59,388 bases of DNA from the IMG/VR virus record IMGVR_UViG_3300037245_003140, positions 1-59,388 of that record. One strand, 5' to 3'. This stretch comes from a virus (lineage: Duplodnaviria; Caudoviricetes). The first letter of the stretch is position 1. Each line of letters begins with the position of its first letter. Positions 557-58,735 of this stretch are shown here, piece by piece. The position numbers and the translations under genes are program-made. Below the pieces are notes generated by a model. It did not search any database and was not told the DNA's origin. It worked only from the letters and a program-made list of their open reading frames with translations.

Positions 557-939
557 TGTCATATGAAGAGAGTTTAAAATGTATAAGCTTACCAGCTTCG
601 GCGGATTTATCTGCCTCTCAGTATAAGTTGGTAGACGTGGCATCAGATGGGGAAATAGCAATTATCACCTCAAAAGGTGCAAAATTTGCCGGTGTTCTCC
701 AGGATGCCCCGGATGCGGTTGGAAGAGTCGGCGCTGTCGGTATTGACGGAGTTACAAAGGTTAGAGCAGGAGCAGCAGTTACGGCAGGGGCGAATGTAAT
801 AGGAGACGCTACAGCAAGGGTAATTGCGACCGATGCGACAGATCAGTTTGTTTTGGGACTGGCCCTTGAAACTGCAACCGCAGCCGATGACGTTATCGCT
901 GTTTTAATTGACAAGTTTCAAACATCAGTAACCGCATAG
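556..939 (+). CDS. Capsid cement/decoration protein (DUF2190-like)
   Basis: 127 aa, Gly/Ala/Val-rich (GVLQDAP, GVTKVRAGAAV, GLALETATAADDVIAVL); directly upstream of the major capsid gene. Confidence 0.75.
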   Translation: MSYEESLKCISLPASADLSASQYKLVDVASDGEIAIITSKGAKFAGVLQDAPDAVGRVGAVGIDGVTKVRAGAAVTAGANVIGDATARVIATDATDQFVLGLALETATAADDVIAVLIDKFQTSVTA

Positions 940-946
940 GAGGCGT

Positions 947-1936
947 GTGATGGGAAGAATAATTAAATATGCCCCTCTTAAGGGCGATGTACATGTTAAC
1001 ACCCCACTGAGCAATGTATCAGTGGCTTTTCTGCAGGATGCTGAGAATTTTGTAGCCGGCAAAGTCTTTAAAAATATTCCGTCTACAAAGCAGTCTGATA
1101 GATATTTCGTATATGATCGAGGTGAGTTTGCGCGTGACCAGATGAAATTAAGGGCGATGGGAACGGAATCAGCTGGCGGTAGTTATGACATCGATAATAC
1201 ACCAAACTTTTTTTGTGATCCTTACGCGATTCACAAAGATGTTCCTGACCAATTAAGAGGCAATGCTGACGATGCCATTTCTCTTGATTCTGAGGCTACG
1301 GAATGGTGCACAGAGCAATCCCTGATTCGAAAAGAAAAGATCTTTGCAGCAAAATATTTTGTTACCGGTTTATGGGGAACAAGCCAGACAACCTCTAATT
1401 GGGGCCCATCCGGTACAGCTACAGACCCTAATACAGATATAAGGGCTGGGAAAACCAGTATACTACTTAAAACAGGTAAAAGAGCTAACACTTTAGTTTT
1501 AGGGCAAAATGTATACGATGCTCTTGCTGACAATGCAGATGTTATTGAGCGTGTTAATGCAGGTCAGACACCAAACGGTCCTGCCGTGGGAACAATTAAC
1601 GCTATGCGCCAGTTGTGGGAGATCGACAATATATATGTTATGGCTGCTTCTGAGAATACAGCTAAAGAAGGTCAAGACCCTTCCTATAGCTTTATAGGCG
1701 CAGACAATGCTCTTCTTTGCTATTCTGCCCCACGTCCTGGAAGAATGACCGCTTCGGCTGGCTATACATTCTCATGGACTGGGTATCTTGGAGCAGGTGC
1801 AGAGGGTGGTAGAATAAAATCGTTTTACATGAAGAGCTTATCGGCTGATAGAATTGAGATGGAAATGGCATTTGATATGAAGCTTATTGCCGCAGACCTT
1901 GGGTATTTCTTTCTTACTCCAATTACTTCAGCTTAA
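947..1936 (+). CDS. Major capsid protein
   Basis: 329 aa with the N-terminal HVNTPLSNVSVAF motif seen in lambda-E-like capsid proteins; GGAGG RBS; expected position in the head module. Confidence 0.85.
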   Translation: MMGRIIKYAPLKGDVHVNTPLSNVSVAFLQDAENFVAGKVFKNIPSTKQSDRYFVYDRGEFARDQMKLRAMGTESAGGSYDIDNTPNFFCDPYAIHKDVPDQLRGNADDAISLDSEATEWCTEQSLIRKEKIFAAKYFVTGLWGTSQTTSNWGPSGTATDPNTDIRAGKTSILLKTGKRANTLVLGQNVYDALADNADVIERVNAGQTPNGPAVGTINAMRQLWEIDNIYVMAASENTAKEGQDPSYSFIGADNALLCYSAPRPGRMTASAGYTFSWTGYLGAGAEGGRIKSFYMKSLSADRIEMEMAFDMKLIAADLGYFFLTPITSA

Positions 1937-1955
1937 TTAAATAACGGAGGATACA

Positions 1956-2465
1956 ATGAGTTTAACCAGTAAAAAAGAACCTGTTATCGCCCTTGGTAGC
2001 TTTAGGTATAGAGGACGAAGCTATAAGGAGGGCAGCTATCTTGACCGAAGACGGTGCAGGATGCCACAGAGTAAGTTAAACCGTATGATCCTTTTTGGGA
2101 AAGTTACAATGGCAAGAGATCTTACACCCGACCAACTTAAAGATTATGGTTGGGTGTATGATCCCCTTCAACCAAGAATTAAATTGATTAAAATCAAGAG
2201 AACAACACAAGAGAAGAACCAACGAATTATTAACGAGCTTATGAAAGAAGGTCCAGAGCCTAACGAAACAGAAGCTCTTGGTACCACCACATCTGAAATG
2301 TCGATGGAAGATCCAACATCACCAAAAAAGCCAAAATACCACATATATGATCGTGGTAATAAGTGGTTTGATGTTATGGAAGGTGAAAAGTTCATTAAAA
2401 AAAGAGTGAGAAAAAAATCAGCTGTAGAAGTTTTGAAAGAGCTTGAAGGTGGCAAAAATGGCTAA
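1956..2465 (+). CDS. Hypothetical head-module protein
   Basis: GGAGG RBS; directly follows the capsid gene. Confidence 0.55.
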   Translation: MSLTSKKEPVIALGSFRYRGRSYKEGSYLDRRRCRMPQSKLNRMILFGKVTMARDLTPDQLKDYGWVYDPLQPRIKLIKIKRTTQEKNQRIINELMKEGPEPNETEALGTTTSEMSMEDPTSPKKPKYHIYDRGNKWFDVMEGEKFIKKRVRKKSAVEVLKELEGGKNG

Positions 2466-3018
2466 AAGAATGATTGCGGCGGATGGTACTCAAAGGTTCC
2501 CGCTATTGGATGACTCAAACAATTCTCAAATAACTGTGGATTTAGCACATTTCAAATTACACCACGGAGATTCATTTGTTGTAACTGATATAGTGGAGTC
2601 ACTCACAACAACAAAAAAATGGATGTTAACCACAGCGGATAGCCTCTCTCTGCCCCACATGATTTTCGATGACAATACTACCGGAGAAAGCTCGATAATA
2701 ATCACAGAAGGTGGGGACAGGATAGGCACCACCTCAATCATACCAGTAAACAGGAACAGATCATCAGCCAACACTACAGGGGTTGTAGTACACAGAGACG
2801 TGAGTGGTGGAACGACTGATGGGGATGTAGTAATATATAGCAATAGGAAAGGATCAACAGGGAACCCCTCAAGAGGCCAAACCCCAGGAGCCCCAAGGGG
2901 TATTCAAGAGTTTGTCTTAAAACCAGACACAAAATATCTAATAGCCGTGACAACGTATGCGGATGTTTTCACAACCCTTGATCTAAATTGGTACGATAAT
3001 GTCAAAAGGACTGGATAA
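2458..3018 (+). CDS. Hypothetical virion protein
   Basis: ATG at 2458 overlaps the end of the previous gene; Thr/Gly-rich sequence within the structural operon. Confidence 0.5.
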   Translation: MAKRMIAADGTQRFPLLDDSNNSQITVDLAHFKLHHGDSFVVTDIVESLTTTKKWMLTTADSLSLPHMIFDDNTTGESSIIITEGGDRIGTTSIIPVNRNRSSANTTGVVVHRDVSGGTTDGDVVIYSNRKGSTGNPSRGQTPGAPRGIQEFVLKPDTKYLIAVTTYADVFTTLDLNWYDNVKRTG

Positions 3019-3030
3019 TAGAGGTTTCTA

Positions 3031-3456
3031 ATGGCTGCAACAGAAGAGCAATTAAGATTATTATTGAATGACAATGGGGTTGTAGAGATACTTTCCTCAA
3101 CCGATTACGCTTTGATAATAGGCATTGAAAGTAATGTATATGCTGCAGCTTCATTGGGGGCATCAACAATTGCTGCAAAATTTGCCCTGAAAGTCAGTAC
3201 AACGACCGCGCCTGTAAAGATTGCACACCAGCAAAAATTTGATCATTATATGACCCTTGAAAAAACATATAATCAGAAAGCCGATGCAGGAAAAGGCGTT
3301 GATGAATCAGAAATTTCCGGTAATGAAGGTTTACCAATCCTTACAGGTGCTAAGAATTCAGATATTGCAGCAGCGAGAGAAGATACAGACAGGTATCAAG
3401 AAACTTTTTACCGTGGGATGAATGATAATCCCGGAACTTACCCGGGAGATAATTAA
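3031..3456 (+). CDS. Head-tail adaptor
   Basis: Size, synteny and the LRLLLND...NVYAAA...IAAKFA pattern. Confidence 0.6.
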   Translation: MAATEEQLRLLLNDNGVVEILSSTDYALIIGIESNVYAAASLGASTIAAKFALKVSTTTAPVKIAHQQKFDHYMTLEKTYNQKADAGKGVDESEISGNEGLPILTGAKNSDIAAAREDTDRYQETFYRGMNDNPGTYPGDN

Positions 3457-3842
3457 TGGGCAATGCAGACTTAGCAGTAGACCTAATCCAAGCTGTTGCT
3501 GATAACATGGCAGAGGTTGGAACAACAAGAATACTCAGGTTATTAACTGAAAGCGCTATTGATATTAACGACCCTGGGGCGCCTCCGACAATTACCCTTG
3601 AAGATATTCCGATTGAATGCTTCTTGTTTGATTTTATTCAGGAATATATGCCTAATGCCAGCGTGATAAATGGCGGAACTATGGCCCTTTTAGATATGTC
3701 GGGATTAACAGAGGCTCAATACGATCAAATAGAACCAGGCAATGAAATTGTCGATGGTTCGGATGTGTTCAATATAATTTTAACAACAAAAATAGAAGCT
3801 GATGGTGTTCCAACAATGTTTATAGTCCAACTAAAGGGTTAA
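3456..3842 (+). CDS. Head closure/stopper protein
   Basis: 128 aa, TAATG-coupled to the adaptor gene; synteny. Confidence 0.55.
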   Translation: MGNADLAVDLIQAVADNMAEVGTTRILRLLTESAIDINDPGAPPTITLEDIPIECFLFDFIQEYMPNASVINGGTMALLDMSGLTEAQYDQIEPGNEIVDGSDVFNIILTTKIEADGVPTMFIVQLKG

Positions 3843-3843
3843 C

Positions 3844-4227
3844 ATGGCACAATCTGGCGACATAATGAAACAATTCATAAAATCAGTTGAAAAAGAAGCC
3901 ATAGGTCTTGTTTTAGATATACATGGCAACCTCGTTGAAGATACACCAGTTGATACGGGGTGGGCCGAAAATAACTGGTTACCGTCCGTTGCTGCTCCTA
4001 TTGATTCCACGGCAGGAACGAGAGAGAGCGTTGATACAGCACAGCAAAACGCAGGAATCGGGGAAATCTTAAGGTGGAGATTTGAACAGGGAAACGCTTT
4101 TTTATCAAACAATGTTCCTTATATTTCAAGGCTAAATGCAGGGAGTTCAGCACAAGCTCCAAGAATGTTTGTGGAGGCTGCTATTCAAAAAGGCGTGGCT
4201 AAGTTTGGAAAGGCTAAATTGAAATGA
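3844..4227 (+). CDS. HK97 gp10-family neck protein
   Basis: TPVDTG..NNW and NNVPYI.RLN.GSS.QAP..FVE motifs. Confidence 0.85.
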   Translation: MAQSGDIMKQFIKSVEKEAIGLVLDIHGNLVEDTPVDTGWAENNWLPSVAAPIDSTAGTRESVDTAQQNAGIGEILRWRFEQGNAFLSNNVPYISRLNAGSSAQAPRMFVEAAIQKGVAKFGKAKLK

Positions 4228-4649
4228 AGCTAATTGACGCCAGAAAAGCTATAACATCAAGGTATTTAACAGAGTTTGCCTTGTTGTATCCAGCTATTCC
4301 TATCTTCATTGACAACAAAGGGGATAGCAGCAAAGGCACAGCAGATAAAGGTGATTCATGGGTTAGGATAACAGTGATATCCACATCGCCAAATGGGCAA
4401 ACATTAGGGAAGCCAGGGAATCGAAAGTATAACAAATTAGGTTTTATAAACTGTCAAATATTCACCTCTATAAACCAGGGAACGAATGCTAACGACGAGA
4501 TGGCAGATGCGAGTAAAGAACTTTTTGAAGGTGTTAGTTTCGCCTCTAAATTATGGTGTTATGATGGAAGAGTTGAAACCATAGGGTCAGACGGTGAATT
4601 CTGGCAACAAAACGCAATTAATGTATTTGAATATGAATATACAAGATAA
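4224..4649 (+). CDS. Tail terminator protein
   Basis: 141 aa directly before the tail tube gene; WVRI and G.I..QIF..G.G patterns. Confidence 0.7.
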   Translation: MKLIDARKAITSRYLTEFALLYPAIPIFIDNKGDSSKGTADKGDSWVRITVISTSPNGQTLGKPGNRKYNKLGFINCQIFTSINQGTNANDEMADASKELFEGVSFASKLWCYDGRVETIGSDGEFWQQNAINVFEYEYTR

Positions 4650-4660
4650 GGAGACAACAG

Positions 4661-6133
4661 ATGGGTGGTAGAACATTAACAAATGCTTCAGGATGGCAGT
4701 TTTCGAGGGAAGAAACACTGGGAAGTCTTCCGGGATCTCCTGTGTGGAAAATATTGGAGCCTAATGATATATCAAGCTTCGGGGCTAGTATTACAAAAGT
4801 GGCCAGAAGTCCTATATCTAAGAACAGGCAGGAAGAAAAAGGAACAGTCACTGACCTTGATAGTGCGGCTGAATTTGCGGTAGATACCACCATGGACCTT
4901 ATTGAAGATGTCGCAGAGCCGTTTGTTTTTGCTAATTTTATTGGTCAAGAAAAAATGAAACCTACTGCAGCGACTGTTTCAGCTTACACAATACCTGCAG
5001 GGACGGCACACCCAGAAAATACATTGGTTGTTGGTTTCGGATTCTTTAACAGCGAAAATAACGGTCTAAAGCTTGTGGATTCTGGAAGCACAACAACAAG
5101 TGTGCCTGTAGTCGAAACACTTGTGGCTGAAACCCCTGCCACTGAAAAAAACGTATCCCTTGAAGTAGCCGGTTTTAGGTTTGCTTCTGGGGATCTCGAA
5201 GTTGATTCAAACGGTGACTTAATAACAACTGTTAAAGATCTTACAGAACTCGGTTTAATACCTGGACAAAGCTTATGGGTCGGTGGTGACGAAACTGCAA
5301 ATAGATTTGACACGGCTGAGGATCGTGGATATGCAAGAGTTGTCTCAGTGGTCACAAATAAAATAGTTTTAGAAAACAGGCAACAAGATTACACGTTGGA
5401 TGATGGAACAGGAAAACTAATCGACCTTTATTTCGGAAGATTTTTGAAAAATGTACCTGTAGGTGATGCAAATTATTTAGAGCAATCAATTCAATTTGAA
5501 GCTGCATATACCGACATAGAAGACCCTGGAGACGCTTACGAATATTCAGAAGGTGCATACTCAAACGTATGGGCCCTTGACCTTCCTTTAACCGACAAAT
5601 CCGTATCTACTATAGGGTATGTTGGGACAGATACTCCAATCCCAACCACTGTAAGAAGGACAAACGCAGCTACTCCGCTTGTCCCTGTTAAAACAACAGC
5701 TCTTAATACTTCTCAGGATATCGCAAGGTTGAGAATACAGGATGTTGATGAGAACGGAATCACCACTGATTTTAAGAGTGCGAATATAACACTTGATAAT
5801 GGTGTTTCCGGGGAAAAAGTATTAGGTATTTTAGGTCCTAAATATATGAACGTTTCTAATTTTAAAGTAGGCCTTGATTCCGAATTGTTATTCTCAAATA
5901 TAGCGGTCCCTGAGGCAATAAGAAACAATGAAACATTAGGTCTTGATTTCGCACTAAGAAACGAAGACGGGGCGGTTATGTTCGATATACCGAGCATGAC
6001 CCTTGAGGGTGGGGATAAGTCATTCCCTGTAAACGAATCAATTAACATATCAGTAACGGCAAATGCGTTTAGAGATGAAACATATGATGCGTCAATTATG
6101 ATTTCACTGTTTCCGTATGTGCCAGTATCTTAA
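4661..6133 (+). CDS. Major tail tube protein
   Basis: 490 aa; N-terminal LEPN..SSFG...VARSPI...RQ..KGTVTDLD pattern of siphophage tail tubes; no sheath gene present. Confidence 0.85.
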   Translation: MGGRTLTNASGWQFSREETLGSLPGSPVWKILEPNDISSFGASITKVARSPISKNRQEEKGTVTDLDSAAEFAVDTTMDLIEDVAEPFVFANFIGQEKMKPTAATVSAYTIPAGTAHPENTLVVGFGFFNSENNGLKLVDSGSTTTSVPVVETLVAETPATEKNVSLEVAGFRFASGDLEVDSNGDLITTVKDLTELGLIPGQSLWVGGDETANRFDTAEDRGYARVVSVVTNKIVLENRQQDYTLDDGTGKLIDLYFGRFLKNVPVGDANYLEQSIQFEAAYTDIEDPGDAYEYSEGAYSNVWALDLPLTDKSVSTIGYVGTDTPIPTTVRRTNAATPLVPVKTTALNTSQDIARLRIQDVDENGITTDFKSANITLDNGVSGEKVLGILGPKYMNVSNFKVGLDSELLFSNIAVPEAIRNNETLGLDFALRNEDGAVMFDIPSMTLEGGDKSFPVNESINISVTANAFRDETYDASIMISLFPYVPVS

Positions 6134-6152
6134 AATAAACTTGGAGTATAAA

Positions 6153-6623
6153 ATGGGTAATTTTTCACATTTAAAAAAATTAAGCGTCAAAGGTAAGACT
6201 GCGGAGTTTCCAATCTCATTAATAAGGTTTGAAAAAAAAAATGGGGATGAAATCGAAAACGTTTCTCCTGTTTTAATAGTCAGCCCAGCAACAAGTATTA
6301 ATAAACCCTACATTAATGCTGCTTTGAGGAAAATGAGCAAGAAGCTTAAGAGAGCTGCTAGCACTGGGATTGTTGGTAAATCTGAAAACGACGAACTTAG
6401 AAAAATATCAATCCAGCTATACCCTCAATATGTGATTGAGGGATGGGAGGATATGCCGGATTCAGATGGGAATTTTGTGGAGTTTACAGAAGAATCATGC
6501 AGGGATTTTTTAGAGGCATACCCTAAAGAGTTGATGGATGAACTTATTGATTTCTGTTCAAAAAATTCCAATTTTGCAGAAGTCCTTGACATGGAAAGTG
6601 CTGGTGAAATAGCAAAAAACTAA
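6153..6623 (+). CDS. Tail assembly chaperone (gpG-like)
   Basis: Lies between tail tube and tape measure genes; GGAG RBS before ATG 6153; ends GCA AAA AAC TAA. Confidence 0.85.
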   Translation: MGNFSHLKKLSVKGKTAEFPISLIRFEKKNGDEIENVSPVLIVSPATSINKPYINAALRKMSKKLKRAASTGIVGKSENDELRKISIQLYPQYVIEGWEDMPDSDGNFVEFTEESCRDFLEAYPKELMDELIDFCSKNSNFAEVLDMESAGEIAKN

Positions 6624-6961
6624 AAGCCCGGCTCATATGGGAACTTCGATATCATAAACAGAAGTTCTCAATTGATGCCGGGATTCGAAAGGGTCGCCCA
6701 CTTCCAAAATGGTATCTTGACGAACCAGATCTTATTTTAGGTGGGGAATTCTATTTAACAGCTTTTTACAACCTTAGTCCTGATCGTCACATAGGAGAGA
6801 TTCAAGGACCTATACCTTACACAAGCATAGCGTTGTATGCAGATAGAAGGGGCCTTGAAGAAGATGTAGCAGAAGCATTCGAGTATATTATTAGAATGAT
6901 AGACGACGAGTACTTAAAATGGTCAAAACCCAAAAAGACTTTAAAAAAAACAGGGAAGTAG
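6614..6961 (+). CDS. Tail assembly chaperone -1 frameshift extension (gpT-like), absent from the ORF track
   Basis: Slippery A AAA AAC at 6614-6620; the -1 frame is open (LKARLIWELRY...GPIPYTSIALYA...TGK) to TAG 6959-6961, abutting the tape measure ATG at 6962. Confidence 0.85.
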   Translation, partial: KKLKARLIWELRYHKQKFSIDAGIRKGRPLPKWYLDEPDLILGGEFYLTAFYNLSPDRHIGEIQGPIPYTSIALYADRRGLEEDVAEAFEYIIRMIDDEYLKWSKPKKTLKKTGK

Positions 6962-9412
6962 ATGGCTGATTTTAGAATTAGAATAATAGCCGATCCAAAA
7001 GGAGTTGTCCAAGGGGCTGATAAGGCTGATAAGGCTTTAAAGAAGGTTGAAAAATCCTCTAATAGTCTGGCCAGTTCCTTAAAGTCAGCTTTTGGGTTTC
7101 TGAGTGCCGGGTTGATTGTTAGAGAACTCGTAACTTTAATTGATACTTTTACCAACCTTCAAAACAGATTAAAAGTAGTAACAAAAGATGAAATAGCCCT
7201 AACCACAGCAACCGAAAACCTTTTTAAAATATCTCAAAGAACAAGGTCAAGTTTTGCCGGGTCGGTGGAGCTATATTCAAGGCTCGCTTTAGCCACAAAA
7301 GATCTTGGGACAGAATCTAAGGAATTAGAACAATTTACAGAATCTCTAAACAAAGCTGTTATTCTTTCCGGAGCTTCTGCGCGAGAAGCAAACGCCGGAA
7401 TTATTCAGTTATCTCAGGGTTTAGCATCAGGAACGTTAAGAGGTGACGAATTAAGGTCTGTCCTCGAACAATTACCAGTAGTGGCCGATGTCATCTCAAA
7501 GAGTCTGGGTATTACCCGTGGACAATTAAGAGAGATGGGTACTCAGGGAAAAATAACAGCCGAAGTTGTTTTAAAAGCTTTCAAAGAAGCTAGGGAAGAA
7601 CTTGATAAAAGATTTCTTAAAACAGTTCCGACTATTTCTCAATCATTCCAAGTCTTAAAAAATAACATGATTAAATTAACTGGGACTTTTGACAAAAATA
7701 CCGGGATAGCAGCTCAACTCTCAAAAGCAATCATGTTTTTGTCGGAAAACCTTGAAACGCTAACGAAAGTAACGGCAATATTTGCAACTATGCTAATCAC
7801 TGTTTTAGCAGGAAGAGCAATCCCGGCAGTAACATCGGCTTTTAACACATTAACAGCAGCCATACTCGCTAATCCTTTTGGGGCCGCTGTCGTAGCGATC
7901 ACGGCTTTAACATCTGCAATGTATCTATTCGGTGACTCTGTATCGATCCAAGAGGGGAAACTTGCCACATTAAGAGATGTAGCTGTAGCACTTTTTAATA
8001 AAATGCTTGAAACTTTCAAGGCTGTAGTTAGATATGTTAAAAAGAATTTTCCAGATGTCTCAGATGTTTTTGATCGAGTTTTTGGGGATATCGAGCTTAG
8101 TTTTAAAGGCATAGCCACATTAATACTAACTCCTATAGGCAGCGCAATTGGAATATTTAAAGGTTTTGCCGCTGTGGTAGGTGTTATATTTTCTGATGGA
8201 ATAGCAAAGGCAATACCAAGAGCTTTCAATTTAGCTTTTGTGTCTGCTATCAAATTGGTACAGATAGGCCTCAACAGTATGATAGGTCTTGCAAATAAAG
8301 CCTTAGCGATATTCGGTGAAAAGGGTTTTGCAAAAATAGATTTCGGCGCCAGTTTAGCAGCTAAAACATTAGAAGCAGAAGTCGCTCCAATGTTTGACGC
8401 ATTCAAAAAAGGATATGCTGAAGGTGCTGTTGGTGTCAATAACTTCATAAATGAGATTCAAGAAAACGCTGAAACTATTGCAATGATTAGAGAAGAGGCC
8501 AACGACCTTGCGTTATTCGAGCAAGAGGCATTCCAAGACGAAACACTAAAAAGTAAAAAAATATTTGACGGCAAAATGTCTCAAGCCGATTTAGCTCTCG
8601 CAAAGCAAAGAATGAAAAGCGCCACTAATCTCTTCGGAGTCCTAAGAGAAATAGGAGGCGTGGATAGTGCATTGGTAGATCTTAAAACCCAGTTATATGA
8701 AAGACAAGCCATAATAACAGATTCTTTAAGGCAAAATATTATAAGCGAACAAGAAGCCCTTAATATATCCCTTGCAGCTAGAAAGGATTATAACAATCAA
8801 TTAATGCAGCTTGAGCTACAAAAAGCTCAAATGATGACTCAGAGCTCTTCAAATATGTTCGGATCGCTTGCGGATATTTCCAGGAGTTTCGGAGGGGAGC
8901 AGAGTAAAACATACAAGAGGTTATTTGCACTTCAGAAAGCCTTTAGTCTTGCATCGTCACTTATAGCAATAACTACCGGTACAGCAAAAGCGATGGAGTT
9001 GGGATGGCCTGCAGGGTTGGCCGCTGCGGCTTCTGTTGCAGCTGCCGGAGCTAGTATAATAGCGAACTTAGCGTCAACTGATTATGCTGGGGCGTTCCAA
9101 AATGGTGGATCTTTCAGAGTTGGAGGCGATGGAGGAACAGACAGCCAAATGGTATCCTTTAAGGCATCACCCAACGAAACAGTATCAGTCACAACCCCGG
9201 GGCAGGAATCTGCCAAAAACAGAAGTAGTGTTCAGGTACAGCAACAGATTAAAATAGAAGTTATAAATAATAAACAAGACGTACAAGTCCAAACCCAAAC
9301 ACAAGCTGATGAGTTCGGAAATGCTGTTATATCAATTATGATAGATGCAATTCTCAGAAATAAGAATGGAGCCAGTAACGTAATTCAATCAGTTGCAAGA
9401 AGGAAAACATAA
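6962..9412 (+). CDS. Tape measure protein
   Basis: 816 aa; IQLSQGLASGTLRGDELRSVLEQ tape-measure motif; Ala-rich hydrophobic helices. Confidence 0.92.
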   Translation: MADFRIRIIADPKGVVQGADKADKALKKVEKSSNSLASSLKSAFGFLSAGLIVRELVTLIDTFTNLQNRLKVVTKDEIALTTATENLFKISQRTRSSFAGSVELYSRLALATKDLGTESKELEQFTESLNKAVILSGASAREANAGIIQLSQGLASGTLRGDELRSVLEQLPVVADVISKSLGITRGQLREMGTQGKITAEVVLKAFKEAREELDKRFLKTVPTISQSFQVLKNNMIKLTGTFDKNTGIAAQLSKAIMFLSENLETLTKVTAIFATMLITVLAGRAIPAVTSAFNTLTAAILANPFGAAVVAITALTSAMYLFGDSVSIQEGKLATLRDVAVALFNKMLETFKAVVRYVKKNFPDVSDVFDRVFGDIELSFKGIATLILTPIGSAIGIFKGFAAVVGVIFSDGIAKAIPRAFNLAFVSAIKLVQIGLNSMIGLANKALAIFGEKGFAKIDFGASLAAKTLEAEVAPMFDAFKKGYAEGAVGVNNFINEIQENAETIAMIREEANDLALFEQEAFQDETLKSKKIFDGKMSQADLALAKQRMKSATNLFGVLREIGGVDSALVDLKTQLYERQAIITDSLRQNIISEQEALNISLAARKDYNNQLMQLELQKAQMMTQSSSNMFGSLADISRSFGGEQSKTYKRLFALQKAFSLASSLIAITTGTAKAMELGWPAGLAAAASVAAAGASIIANLASTDYAGAFQNGGSFRVGGDGGTDSQMVSFKASPNETVSVTTPGQESAKNRSSVQVQQQIKIEVINNKQDVQVQTQTQADEFGNAVISIMIDAILRNKNGASNVIQSVARRKT

Positions 9413-23813: not shown

Positions 23814-24251
23814 ATGGAAAAATTAATAGTTCAATGGAATGGTCAATGATATGTCCCTCACTCTCTACAGGATGTAGATAAAAGTAAATCATTCCAGAAA
23901 AACAAATTATTAAAAGCTGATATCCGGGGCGCTCAAAAACAAGCGTCCTTGGTTCAGTTAAAAACATACTGGGGAGCCTGTCAGATCGTTTCAGAAAATA
24001 CAGATGATCCGAACTGGAAAACCAGAGAAGATGTTGACTTTCAATTAAAAGTAGCATGTAGGCATTATAAAAGAATGTCAGTTGTTGGGAATCAAGTTTT
24101 CTTAGAGCCAGCTTCTATATCATTTGATAATCTGAAACATATTGAAAGAAATAAATACTTTGATAAAGCTTTCCAGGAAATGTCAGAGAAAATTGGAGTT
24201 CCTGTTGATGAGATTATTGAAGAGGTTAAAAAAGCGGCTGGTCATATATAA
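23814..24251 (+). CDS. NinB/DUF1367-like protein with in-frame TGA at codon 12 (candidate Sec recoding, or nonsense allele)
   Basis: ATG 23814 lies 1 nt after the upstream stop; MEKLIVQWNGQ*YVPHS... runs in frame into ORF 23949-24251; ASISFDNL...YFDKAF C-terminus. Confidence 0.6.
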
Positions 24252-55160: not shown

Positions 55161-56603
55161 ATGTGGCCCTTCAAAAAAAAAGAATCCCCTGAAGAAATTC
55201 CAGATACAGAGCAAGAGTCCAACGATAAAGATCGAGGCTTCGAAGAACTCGGTGTCGCCGGCGTCAAAATGTCAGGCGGCTACGTATACGAAGAGTTCCT
55301 GGTTAAGCTTCAAGGTTCAAAAGGGCGAAAAGTTTACCGTGAAATGCGGGATAATGACGCTACTATTTCCGCAATTATGCACGCAATTGAGATGACTATC
55401 CGTGGTGTTGAATGGAATGTTATTCCTTCAATAATCCCCGCAGATAAAAACGCACCCATGACCGATGACGAACAAAAGGCCCAGGATGCTGCCGATTTTC
55501 TTGAAAGTGTCATGTTCGATGATATGTCTCATACCTTTGACGATTTTATAGCCGAAGTACTGTCGATGCTTACATTCGGATGGGAATACACAGAAATTGT
55601 TTGGAAAAGAAGATTAGGCCCAAATCAGTTAGATCCTTCTAAGCGATCTGCTTACGATGATGGATATATAGGAGTGAGAAAGCTCGCAAACAGAGCGCAG
55701 GAAACTCTTGATAAATGGCAGATGGACGAAAACGGTGGAATTGACGGTCTTTGGCAATATCCCCCAATGTCAGGTGGTTCGAGATATATACCTATTGAAA
55801 AAGCTCTGTTATTCAGAACCACAATGCTTAAAAATAATCCTGAAGGTAAATCAGCATTACGGGGATCATATGTGGCGTGGTGGTACCTGAAAAGAATTCA
55901 AGAAGAGGAAGCTACCGGGGTAGAAAGAAACCTAAATGGCTTTCCTGTTATAATAGCTCCTAAAGATGTGCTTGACGCTCAAACGCCATTAAACAAGCGA
56001 AAAAGACAAGCCTATATTGAGATGGTCAGAGATATGAAAAACAATTCTCAAGGGGGGGCTGTTATTGAGTCTGATCCTTGGGTAATCGATGGCAAGGCAA
56101 CCAACATGCCAAGGGTGGATATTAAGCTACTATCAACTGATGGTGGATCAACTATAGATACCGGAGCAATAATATTAAGATATCAGCACGACATAGCCCG
56201 AACACTTGCACAGGATGTTATGATGCTTGGTTCTGGTTCTGGTGGTTCGTGGGCACTAAGCAAAGATAAATCAGCTCTTTCTATTAGATCGATTGAGGGA
56301 TGGTTAGAATCAATAGCAGCAACTTTAAATCGGTTTTTAGTTGTAAGGCTATGGAGAATTAACGGATTTGAGCAAAAATATATGCCTTATTTGAAACCTG
56401 ACCAGATCGCAGACGAAGATTTGGAAGCATTAGGTAATTTTGTGTCATCTCTTGCCAAAGGAGGGATTATGCTTAACGACCCTGAAACAGAAGACGAGTT
56501 AAGGGCGGCGGCTAATCTTCCACCTAAACCGGACGATATGGAAGACAATATAAGTGGTGATGATATGATTGACGAAAAACTAACTCAAAATAGTGAGGTA
56601 TAA
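55161..56603 (+). CDS. Portal protein (DUF935/Mu gp29-like)
   Basis: Y.EMRDND.TI, ML.FGW...EIV, NPEG.S.LR..Y..W, GS.AL motifs; 480 aa. Confidence 0.9.
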   Translation: MWPFKKKESPEEIPDTEQESNDKDRGFEELGVAGVKMSGGYVYEEFLVKLQGSKGRKVYREMRDNDATISAIMHAIEMTIRGVEWNVIPSIIPADKNAPMTDDEQKAQDAADFLESVMFDDMSHTFDDFIAEVLSMLTFGWEYTEIVWKRRLGPNQLDPSKRSAYDDGYIGVRKLANRAQETLDKWQMDENGGIDGLWQYPPMSGGSRYIPIEKALLFRTTMLKNNPEGKSALRGSYVAWWYLKRIQEEEATGVERNLNGFPVIIAPKDVLDAQTPLNKRKRQAYIEMVRDMKNNSQGGAVIESDPWVIDGKATNMPRVDIKLLSTDGGSTIDTGAIILRYQHDIARTLAQDVMMLGSGSGGSWALSKDKSALSIRSIEGWLESIAATLNRFLVVRLWRINGFEQKYMPYLKPDQIADEDLEALGNFVSSLAKGGIMLNDPETEDELRAAANLPPKPDDMEDNISGDDMIDEKLTQNSEV

Positions 56604-56614
56604 AAGTATATTTC

Positions 56615-56758
56615 ATGAAGGAAAAAGAGTTAAAAAAATATGTGCCACCAAAATATACAATAGAAAAACAAATGTTATTTATGTATGATTTTATGAAAAC
56701 AGATAAGGCCAATAAAATGGCGTGTCGTCAATGTTCATCGTGCCACGGATGTAGGTAG
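56615..56758 (+). CDS. 47-aa peptide ending CRQCSSCHGCR (not in the ORF track)
   Basis: Open frame fills the gap between the portal gene and 56772; terminal CxxCxxCxxC. Confidence 0.6.
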   Translation: MKEKELKKYVPPKYTIEKQMLFMYDFMKTDKANKMACRQCSSCHGCR

Positions 56759-56771
56759 AGGACGGTATAAA

Positions 56772-57104
56772 ATGAAGTTTAAAAATTACTTTATAGATGA
56801 AGATGGTAACATATGGAAAGAGAAAACACTTATTGAAGCCTCAAAAGATTTGGTAATATTCTCCTTTGATCTCGGCAATATTTCTCTTGATGAACAGATA
56901 TTGTGGCAAACAAATAATGTTCGAGATTATACTCTGCATTATAAGAGATTAGCAGAGTGCAATCTCAAAGAGCCTATTATCTTAAGGTCTGATGGATATC
57001 CCATGGATGGATGGCATAGAATTATAAAGGCAATCAGTAAAGGAGTGAAAACCTTACCTGCAAGAAGATTTAAAATTGACCCTAAACCGGATATTAAGGA
57101 ATAA
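56772..57104 (+). CDS. Small ParB/Srx-like protein
   Basis: PIIL..DG..MDGWHRI.KA...G motif. Confidence 0.7.
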   Translation: MKFKNYFIDEDGNIWKEKTLIEASKDLVIFSFDLGNISLDEQILWQTNNVRDYTLHYKRLAECNLKEPIILRSDGYPMDGWHRIIKAISKGVKTLPARRFKIDPKPDIKE

Positions 57105-57106
57105 AA

Positions 57107-58153
57107 TTGGCTGACCAAGCATTTATAATAGCAGAATCATTTGAACCTAAAATAGGACTGGCTATGCTCGAAGCTTTTGCCGCTATGAAGGATTCTGTGA
57201 CATTAAACCAGCTTGAAACAGTCTTGAGAAATCAGGGTATCGGGGGAATGCAAAGACTCCTTGCTGATATGCAGATTGAGGGAATAATAGAAAGCAGCAT
57301 TACCGATGATCTTAACGAGGCTATTATGGAATCCGGTAGGGCAACATTTGCAGCAATACCAGACGGGCTGAAAACAGGTCAAGTATTCAGATATGATCTA
57401 ATTAACCCTACTACAGCTCAATATGTAAGAAACTATGAGTTAAGCCTTGTGCAGAAGATCAGTGCTAATACCAGGGAAGCTATAAGAAATAATATTGAAG
57501 CTTCCGTAATTTCCGGGCAAAATCCAAAAGTCACGGCTCGAAAATTCAGAGATACAATAGGACTAACACCGAATCAAGAACGAGCAGTACAGAACTATGA
57601 AAAAGCTTTGAGAGATATGGATAGTAGTTCTCTTAAAAGAGCATTGAGAGATAAGCGTTTTGATAGTACCGTTTTGAGATCCATAAAAAACAATCAGCCA
57701 TTGTCAGAAGACCAAATCGAAAGAATGGTCACAAGATATAGAGAGCGATATATTAAATATAGAGCCGAAACCATTGCAAGAACAGAATCATTAAGGGCGG
57801 TTTCTGTTGGTGATTATACATCAGCACTTCAGGCCGTGAATGAGGGAGCAGTTGAGCGTGAAAGATTAAAAAGATTTTGGGTTTATACCAGGGGTAAGAG
57901 GACCAGGCCACCGCACAGGCAAATTCCATCTATGAATCCATTAGGGGTTTATATTGATGAGCCTTTTCAAACTCCTTTAGGTCCGTTGATGTTTCCAAGG
58001 GACCCCAACGGGACGGCGGCTAACACAATTCGCTGACGTTGTGCCGTAAGGTATAGGCTTGTAGAGCCTGACACGCAAACAGTAAATGTACCAAGAACAA
58101 AAGTTGAGATTAGAAAAATGTCGTTGACACCTAAAATAAGGAAAGCAGCATGA
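57107..58153 (+). CDS. Head morphogenesis protein (SPP1 gp7/Mu gpF-like) with in-frame TGA at 58034-58036, candidate selenocysteine
   Basis: RAETIARTE, W......RTRPPH, and FPRDP...ANTIR*RC. Readthrough adds 39 codons to TGA 58151-58153, which overlaps the next ATG. Confidence 0.8.
58037..58080 (+). promoter_or_regulatory. Bacterial SECIS-like hairpin
   Basis: AGGCT-TGTAG-AGCCT (58055-58069), extendable by further imperfect pairing; loop begins at +24 after the TGA, with G then U at loop positions 2-3. Confidence 0.6.
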
Positions 58154-58333
58154 GTCATAAATGCCTTTTCAATACCGATTTAAAACAAAACGATTCTTCT
58201 GATATTCATATAGGAGTCTGGGGAAAGACCATATGTTTAAATGACGATTCCCGTGATGAAATTAATATTGACACCGAAAATATAGATGAATTTATAAAGA
58301 TCTTACAGGGTATAAAAAAGGAGATTCCAACCA

Positions 58334-58735
58334 ATGGGTAAAAAAAGCATATTCAAAGCCCAATGTTCAGTCGTAAAAGTAGACGAACCTCTTGGAATTG
58401 TGTTCGGTTGGGGAATGATTACAGATGTTGACGGAGAGCCATATTATGATCTTGACAACCTTCATATTGATTCAGAATTAATGATGAAGGGAACATCGGA
58501 GTTTATGGAAACAGAGAGAATAAGCAACGATTCCCACACAGAGAATGACATTGGAATTGTTATTCATAGTTTCCCATTAACACCAGAAACAGCATTAGCT
58601 ATGGGTGTATTTAGCAAGATTAACGGATGGATGGTTGGAGTAAAGCCAGACAAAGAGAACCTTGAGAAGTATGCATCTGGTGAATATAAAGGATTTTCAA
58701 TAGAGGGTGAAGGTATTGTGGAGGACGAAGAATAA
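58334..58735 (+). CDS. XkdF-like prohead serine protease
   Basis: VKVDE..GIVFGW...D.D...H...SFP...GWMVG...GEYKGFSIEG. Confidence 0.82.
   Translation: MGKKSIFKAQCSVVKVDEPLGIVFGWGMITDVDGEPYYDLDNLHIDSELMMKGTSEFMETERISNDSHTENDIGIVIHSFPLTPETALAMGVFSKINGWMVGVKPDKENLEKYASGEYKGFSIEGEGIVEDEE

Follow-up and report, generated by a model that had tools for sequence, protein, structure and literature searches.

Introduction

UGA is decoded as selenocysteine (Sec) by cells and by a small number of animal viruses. In bacterial genes that depend on SelB, the prototype being fdhF of Escherichia coli, the signal is a hairpin within the open reading frame (ORF), the bacterial selenocysteine insertion sequence (bSECIS), and the model given in parts of PMC13188914 describes it by a loop of 3-9 nucleotides (nt), a stem of at least 4 base pairs (bp), a G in the first two loop positions, a spacing of 16-37 nt between UGA and loop, and a minimum free energy (MFE) of -7.5 kcal/mol or lower. 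On the phage side, proteins of the Mu F and SPP1 gp7 type, here called MuF proteins, are described in parts of PMC5512222 as constituents of the head that frequently carry injected effectors as fusion partners, and their presence in the virion is also taken from there. The stretch of DNA analyzed here (the window) is the virus record IMGVR_UViG_3300037245_003140 of IMG/VR at its full length, a complete record that measures 59,388 bases, has direct terminal repeats and a GC content of 35%, and was obtained from a marine-sediment metagenome. Its MuF gene, located at 57107-58153, carries an in-frame TGA at codon 310, in the column of an invariant cysteine and upstream of a SECIS-like hairpin. This UGA is most likely read as Sec by means of the SelB and tRNA-Sec of the host, a reading that we consider probable.

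An in-frame TGA in the MuF gene

The called ORF starts with TTG, lies on the + strand at 57107-58036 and encodes 309 amino acids (aa), its codons 1-309 occupying 57107-58033 and the TGA, with C as the next base, occupying 58034-58036. The ORF list confirms that it ends in ...GTAANTIR-TGA, as reported in the preliminary description of this DNA, and also that the frame stays open afterwards as RCAVRYRLVEP... for 38 codons (58037-58150), whose translation comprises R311, C312, the last beta-strand, and a basic tail. The extended gene terminates at a TGA (58151-58153) that overlaps the ATG of the next ORF at 58150, and no SECIS-like hairpin is found 3' of this terminal TGA. The same type of ATGA overlap, already likened to that of other coupled genes, joins six further gene pairs in the window (junctions 4224, 10640, 17107, 29650, 41248, and 43250). 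Since TGA also terminates 20 of the 82 ORFs of at least 100 aa in this genome, it is a normal stop in this phage. A genome-wide reassignment of TGA, either through genetic code 4 or 25 or through recoding of late phage genes, would be in keeping with the low GC content and the uncultured host. This option was rejected on the basis of those terminal TGAs and overlaps; moreover, only two candidate in-frame TGAs occur in the window, no suppressor tRNA is present, and Trp or Gly would be implausible at an invariant Cys, leaving it a negligible probability.

The match of the MuF protein to PF04233 rises from 32.6 bits (gathering cut-off 29.6) to 40.3 bits when the TGA is read through, and the coverage of the profile grows from position 95 to position 111 of 112. 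In addition, the ORF matches phrog_3517, annotated as 'head morphogenesis', with an E value of 5.8e-70. Judged by these profile matches, 57107-58153 is a head-morphogenesis gene of the Mu F/SPP1 gp7 type.

Homologues of the protein number 407, the best 120 of which are listed, and the alignment takes in 105 sequences. C310 and C312 are invariant throughout this alignment and R311 is at least 90% conserved, with H270, W258, R267, N277, P297, and P300 conserved as well. The C-R-C motif, which had been called typical of gp7/gpF proteins, is indeed a feature of this subfamily, and the homologues carry Cys in the column where the window has its TGA, namely that of the first Cys (C310). The residues RCAVRYRLV after the TGA follow the family consensus RCxVxYRxI. 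The UGA is located in an invariant Cys column with conservation on both sides, which is the Sec/Cys pair by which bacterial selenoprotein genes are recognized. Deviations are seen in distant members, such as C-Q-C in P0178 and C-K-C in P0080. Since the polar residues that never vary in the C-terminal domain are H270, D299, C310, and C312, our guess is that the C-x-C centre could be a metal or redox site.

In MuF proteins of many lineages, the first Cys of the C-R-C motif is the precise insertion site of an intein (P0123, L017, L023, L054, P0022, P0131, P0148, P0206, P0240, P0166, P0193, and P0229), and the target of an intein is usually a critical site of its host protein. The family comprises 26,558 representatives at 50% identity; among the best 150 representatives retrieved by a search, 141 were new proteins, at least seven of which carry an intein at the motif and none of which terminates at it.

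The closest relative on record, P0123, is a cluster mate of the window protein (at least 90% identity) and keeps the Cys. Its sequence reads ...NTIN-(322-aa intein)-CRCAVRYKLVEP...KIRKAA, the intein being located exactly at the first Cys of the motif. The two proteins are identical at 33 of the 38 positions of the tail and at 284 of the 309 positions upstream. The allele of the window is devoid of the intein and differs from P0123 at the preceding residue (R instead of N) and at the Cys codon. In the AlphaFold2 (AF2) model of the MuF protein, with a predicted local distance difference test (pLDDT) score of 93.8, residues 313-318 form a strand inside the folded C-terminal domain (pLDDT about 95), and residues 321-348, modelled with low confidence, score about 60. 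Since this predicted strand belongs to the folded domain, a product ending at residue 309 would miss both the invariant Cys and a core strand. Judged by its match to P0123 and to the family consensus, the 38-codon tail is real coding sequence. Most relatives have a shorter tail (about 10 codons versus 38), and the tryptic peptide LVEPDTQTVNVPR would be located beyond the UGA in the extended product. Structure searches with the full AF2 model returned helical-bundle look-alikes only, and a search of the PDB with the isolated C-terminal domain (model pLDDT 92.0) gave no structural relative (best Z 2.2, Foldseek E >6); sequence searches of the PDB and of NCBIfam with the MuF protein returned nothing.

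Single-base mistakes happen in metagenome assemblies, and the evidence on the TGA base is at the level of contigs, so an error concealing a true TGT or TGC codon has to be considered. One public run, maybe the source sample, carries the stretch, in the form of assembled contigs, and no RNA data set that carries it was listed. An independently assembled Logan contig of 47,099 nt, with a depth of 26.7, is identical to the window over 57800-58300 and has no variant contig. The TGA, whose confirmation in raw reads had been proposed as a check, is present in the contigs of this second assembly, and the 309-aa product is recorded identically on three JGI contigs and one Logan contig. With two assemblers in agreement, an error of sequencing or assembly is regarded as very unlikely.

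TGA codons at the motif in other phages

IMG/VR was scanned with a degenerate pattern of the 16-codon motif, in which TGA was placed at the first or at the second Cys. TGA at the first Cys was found in locus L084 (U-R-C), the other four of the five matches all representing a single unrelated sequence. When placed at the second Cys, TGA was found in L088 and L090 (C-R-U), as well as in L089 (7308-7355), where C-R-TGA-TGA lies in a broken MuF remnant with stops upstream and a long ORF running on in another frame. In contrast to this remnant, the frames of L084, L088, and L090 remain open in tails that resemble those of the family and stop close to the next gene. With 66% (L084), 56% (L088), and 33% (L090) GC, the three loci represent separate events. 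All TGA forms are on record as truncated proteins. As for L088, it encodes a portal-MuF fusion of about 750 residues on the reverse strand, with the TGA at 4216-4214 in the second Cys codon, followed by a 7-bp hairpin with the loop GGA.

The number of Cys-form matches in IMG/VR was estimated by capture-recapture at about 1,680 (95% range 575-8,146). The four stops found at the two Cys codons lie above the 95% upper bound of the background, the probability of four or more being 0.001 at about 1,680 matches. No clear internal stop was found in 21,609 upstream codons of 120 unbiased Cys-form loci; the seven stops inside the hidden Markov model envelope all lie no more than about 25 codons from its N-terminal edge and are read as being upstream of the true starts. 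The U-R-C pattern gave a single chance match (L086) in JGI metagenome contigs and none in GTDB genomes.

Some protein records also terminate at the motif: P0017 (54% identical to the window protein) and P0029 (57%) end just before the first Cys and P0060 (51%) ends before the second. These three were left out of the count of TGA forms, being protein records only. C-R-C is present in P0124, which shares a cluster with P0017, and the viral scan with P0017 gave only a 47% relative.

The SECIS-like hairpin

The hairpin named in the preliminary description, with AGGCT/AGCCT arms and the loop TGTAG starting 24 nt past the TGA, is present as a 5-bp form. Its extended form pairs 58054-58060 with 58064-58070 in a 7-bp stem that includes two G-U pairs, and the loop GUA (58061-58063) is still 24 nt from the TGA, so that the whole element occupies 58054-58070 on the + strand. 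The wider pairing that had been proposed from +2 to +44 does exist as one alternative fold, but with an ensemble frequency of only 0.065. No terminator-like site occurs in 57600-58500, and a role of the hairpin as a transcription terminator was ruled out on this basis.

The score given to each site is the energy of its most stable perfect hairpin within the published bSECIS geometry, and hairpins fitting this geometry follow all four TGAs, with MFEs of the 50-nt regions that are all -7.5 kcal/mol or lower. The best hairpin of the window MuF gene reaches -6.8 kcal/mol (loop GUA, spacing 24 nt, 50-nt MFE -11.9), an energy attained by 24 of 2,000 recodings. The corresponding values are -7.5 kcal/mol for L084 (loop GGGUGAG, or CGU in the MFE fold; 31 nt; MFE -19.3; 367 of 2,000 recodings), -8.7 kcal/mol for L088 (loop GGA; 20 nt; MFE -11.1; 135 of 2,000), and -9.2 kcal/mol for L090 (loop GUC; 22 nt; MFE -14.4; 1 of 2,000). 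In this resampling of synonymous codons, which keeps the protein unchanged, Fisher's combined p over the four sites is 6.6e-5.

The bSECIS model being loose, it is by comparison with 181 Cys forms that the significance of these hairpins is judged. A check proposed earlier was whether the hairpin accompanies the TGA-bearing copies rather than the Cys-bearing ones, and this is what is observed: all four TGA forms reach -6.8 kcal/mol, compared with 6 of 181 Cys-form genes when measured from the first Cys and 7 of 181 from the second, i.e., 13 of 362 reference points. Hairpin energies differ between TGA and Cys forms with a Mann-Whitney p of 3e-4, or of 1.1e-3 when the window is left out and the TGA forms are L084, L088, and L090. 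The closest relative conforms to this pattern, since P0123, a Cys form, probably cannot fold the same stem: as deduced from its protein, a Lys replaces the Arg whose codon AGG provides two of the stem bases. Within the window, 19 of 2,147 TGA triplets reach -6.8 kcal/mol, the hairpin after the MuF TGA ranks first among those of the 14 TGAs that end ORFs of at least 120 aa, and only one of 131 in-frame Cys codons reaches -6.5 kcal/mol. The whole 50-60 nt fold at the window TGA is no more stable than its shuffles (z 0.0 to -0.5).

Two other explanations have to be weighed against these data. The first is leaky termination, in which a near-cognate tRNA (Trp, Cys, or Arg) would read the UGA-C with low frequency, a few full-length molecules would suffice for a minor head protein, and the hairpin would be incidental or would slow the ribosome. 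UGA followed by C, the context of the window stop, is a weak terminator; a second in-frame TGA without a Cys counterpart occurs early in a NinB-like gene of the same phage (see below); and misreading by tRNA-Cys would presumably restore the normal protein. Moreover, a Cys codon is always one step away from TGA, and recurrence at Cys needs no special mechanism. Leakiness leaves unexplained, however, why a positioned hairpin with a G in the loop follows 4 of 4 TGA forms versus 6-7 of 181 Cys forms, and why codon choice favours such hairpins. To our knowledge, the SelB route is the only one by which UGA decoding in bacteria depends on a hairpin. Leaky termination is, on the whole, considered unlikely.

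The second is a private nonsense mutation, in which a recent change from TGY to TGA cuts the protein off after residue 309, leaving the phage either defective or tolerant of the loss, gp7-type proteins being not strictly essential. One base change would be enough and the Cys of the nearest relative makes the change recent; L089 shows that dead copies stopped at the motif exist, and a single run, perhaps the source sample, contains the sequence. Against this, the genome is complete, with direct repeats at its ends, truncation would cost the protein the invariant Cys and the core strand, the tail terminates in an ATGA overlap with no sign of drift, and the same pattern with open tails is repeated in three other lineages. 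The association with the hairpin and the codon bias would also be left without explanation, and a nonsense mutation of this kind appears rather improbable.

Probable selenocysteine insertion with the help of the host

Taken together, the association of the hairpin with TGA, the Sec/Cys pair, and the need for the tail make Sec insertion the best explanation of codon 310. During late infection, the SelB of the host, carrying Sec-tRNA(Sec), would bind the hairpin at 58054-58070 (loop GUA), 24 nt downstream of the UGA, and insert Sec. The U-R-C sequence would then replace the C-R-C of the family and translation would continue to the TGA at 58151, the product being a 348-residue virion protein of the MuF/gp7 type with Sec at codon 310. 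The Sec decoding, the reliance on host selA/B/C/D, and the role of the motif are the conjectural parts of this scheme. The selenoprotein reading of the preliminary description thereby stands as the one best supported by the column, the tail, the recurrence, and the link with the hairpin, while decoding as Sec is itself a step that we infer. The balance also tips slightly towards a broader proposal, according to which the MuF/gp7-type head proteins of tailed phages would constitute a selenoprotein family whose lineages repeatedly swap either Cys of C-x-C for Sec, each with a SECIS hairpin evolved on its own.

Concerning the host, relatives of the MuF protein in genome collections amount to 17 loci, and only one of them exceeds 50% identity (53%). 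It belongs to a metagenome-assembled genome (MAG) of a member of the Deltaproteobacteria that encodes SelA (512 bits) and tRNA-Sec (77 bits). This counts as no more than a hint, because the copy in the MAG is a Cys form located on a 6.5-kb binned contig. No tRNA-Sec was found in the records of L084, L088, and L090, which are only 10-28% complete.

Several observations weigh against Sec insertion. Firstly, at the level of the hairpin, the Fisher test that contrasts TGA and Cys forms (p = 3e-6) uses a threshold of -6.8 kcal/mol picked after seeing the data, the perfect hairpin of L084 is reached by 18% of its synonymous recodings, and the MFE of the whole region is no better than that of shuffles in three of the four TGA forms (z 0.0 to -0.7), L090 alone being better (z = -3.0). 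Secondly, the whole phage record, in which selA, selB, and tRNA-Sec had been noted as not visible, was searched and contains no tRNA, Rfam family match, tRNA-Sec, SelA, SelB wing domain, or SelD. Thirdly, the first Cys is not indispensable everywhere, since the distant member L073 (3400-3503) has D-R-C, and L089 is a plain, non-recoded stop at the second Cys codon, showing that such stops occur. As for the frequency of stops, only four TGA forms are available in all, and their excess disappears at the upper estimate of 8,146 matches (probability of four or more, 0.18). The control with the neighbouring codons, in which a stop or Trp at codon 309 or 311 was found at 0 and 0 loci in the same IMG/VR scan, speaks for recoding but is weak because these codons offer 90 single-step paths to a stop, compared with 320 at the two Cys codons. 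Furthermore, the Cys form of P0123 makes the TGA of the window recent, and a recent nonsense mutation would leave the tail intact too. Finally, the TGA of the NinB-like gene has no Cys counterpart in the one distant homologue of that gene, which hints at a general leakiness of UGA.

The second in-frame TGA and the head module

The NinB/Orf-like gene begins with an ATG at 23814, one base after the upstream stop, has a TGA at codon 12 (23847-23849), and its frame then enters the called ORF 23949-24251. A match to phrog_319 spans residues 8-143 of this frame; the called TTG start at 23949 removes about 45 residues, part of which is covered by the distant homologue, whose alignment begins at residue 19 and therefore ahead of that start. 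This TGA is followed, 20 nt on, by a 6-bp hairpin with the loop GGA, which is weak (-3.7 to -4.5 kcal/mol) and whose energy is reached by 90 of the 2,147 TGA triplets of the window and by 48 of 2,000 recodings. The NinB-like TGA may be either a second Sec site or an instance of general UGA leakiness.

The MuF gene is placed in the head module, with the portal gene upstream, the protease gene downstream, and three small ORFs intervening. The portal protein is encoded at 55161-56603 on the + strand (Pfam Portal_Mu PF06074, E 9.8e-30) and the XkdF-like prohead protease at 58334-58735, also on the + strand (Pfam PF14550, 26.3 bits versus a cut-off of 24). Between the portal and MuF genes (56615-57104), there are a 47-aa Cys-rich ORF that ends in a CxxCxxCxxC run and a gene for a 110-aa protein (phrog_17560, without a Pfam match), and a 63-aa ORF lies downstream of MuF, between it and the protease gene. 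A search of the phage collection returned no match for the head module. Many relatives of the MuF protein (P0082, P0083, and others, 500-1,600 aa in length) have long C-terminal extensions past C-R-C, two of which carry an ADP-ribosylating-toxin Pfam domain, in agreement with the published picture of MuF proteins as carriers of injected effectors.

Significance and comparison with known systems

If codon 310 is read as Sec, a structural protein of a phage would rely on a recoding system of the host that many bacteria lack, which would limit the host range and tie the fitness of the phage to selenium. Under the broader proposal, virions would carry selenium, and infectivity would need the Sec machinery of the host as well as enough selenium. 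The C-x-C centre, an intein hot spot too, would be a reactive redox or metal site acting in head assembly or DNA ejection, and the motif of a very large and poorly understood family would be marked as chemically active. Moreover, the NinB-like gene might hold a second Sec site of this phage, gene callers would routinely shorten such genes, and the UGA with its hairpin would be a compact natural cassette. Full-text literature searches, with supplementary family lists outside their scope, found no bacteriophage selenoprotein. Likewise, in the text searched of the 2026 review of the prokaryotic selenoproteome (PMC13188914), the terms phage, prophage, virus, viral, capsid, head, MuF, and PF04233 do not occur.

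Among other phage genes, the window gene resembles Mu F and SPP1 gp7 (PF04233) in its Pfam and PHROG matches, its position in the head module, and its C-terminal C-R-C motif, and differs from other proteins of this type in that its first Cys codon is TGA and its tail is longer. A virion protein extended through UGA has a counterpart in A1 of phage Q-beta, a C-terminally extended virion protein that arises from a leaky UGA. Unlike the MuF case, the UGA of Q-beta is not at a conserved Cys and is not known to require a SECIS-type hairpin.

The bacterial genes with a SECIS inside the ORF and decoding by SelB, as treated in parts of PMC13188914, share with the phage gene the UGA at a Cys column, the coding sequence downstream, and the geometry of the hairpin, whose loop opens with G followed by G or U. 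In contrast to them, the phage gene encodes a head-assembly and virion protein instead of a cellular redox enzyme, has no sel genes in cis, and belongs to a set of TGA forms with short stems of 6-8 bp. The same parts of that review list the thioredoxin-like selenoproteins Sec.1 (CxU) and Sec.2 (UxC), together with the Cu/Zn efflux transporter SO_0444 (UxC). Although these are cellular proteins with folds unrelated to that of MuF, they are earlier examples of Sec in place of the first or the second Cys of a C-x-C motif, as would be the case in the U-R-C and C-R-U forms of the MuF family, and, in SO_0444, of UxC in a protein that handles metals.

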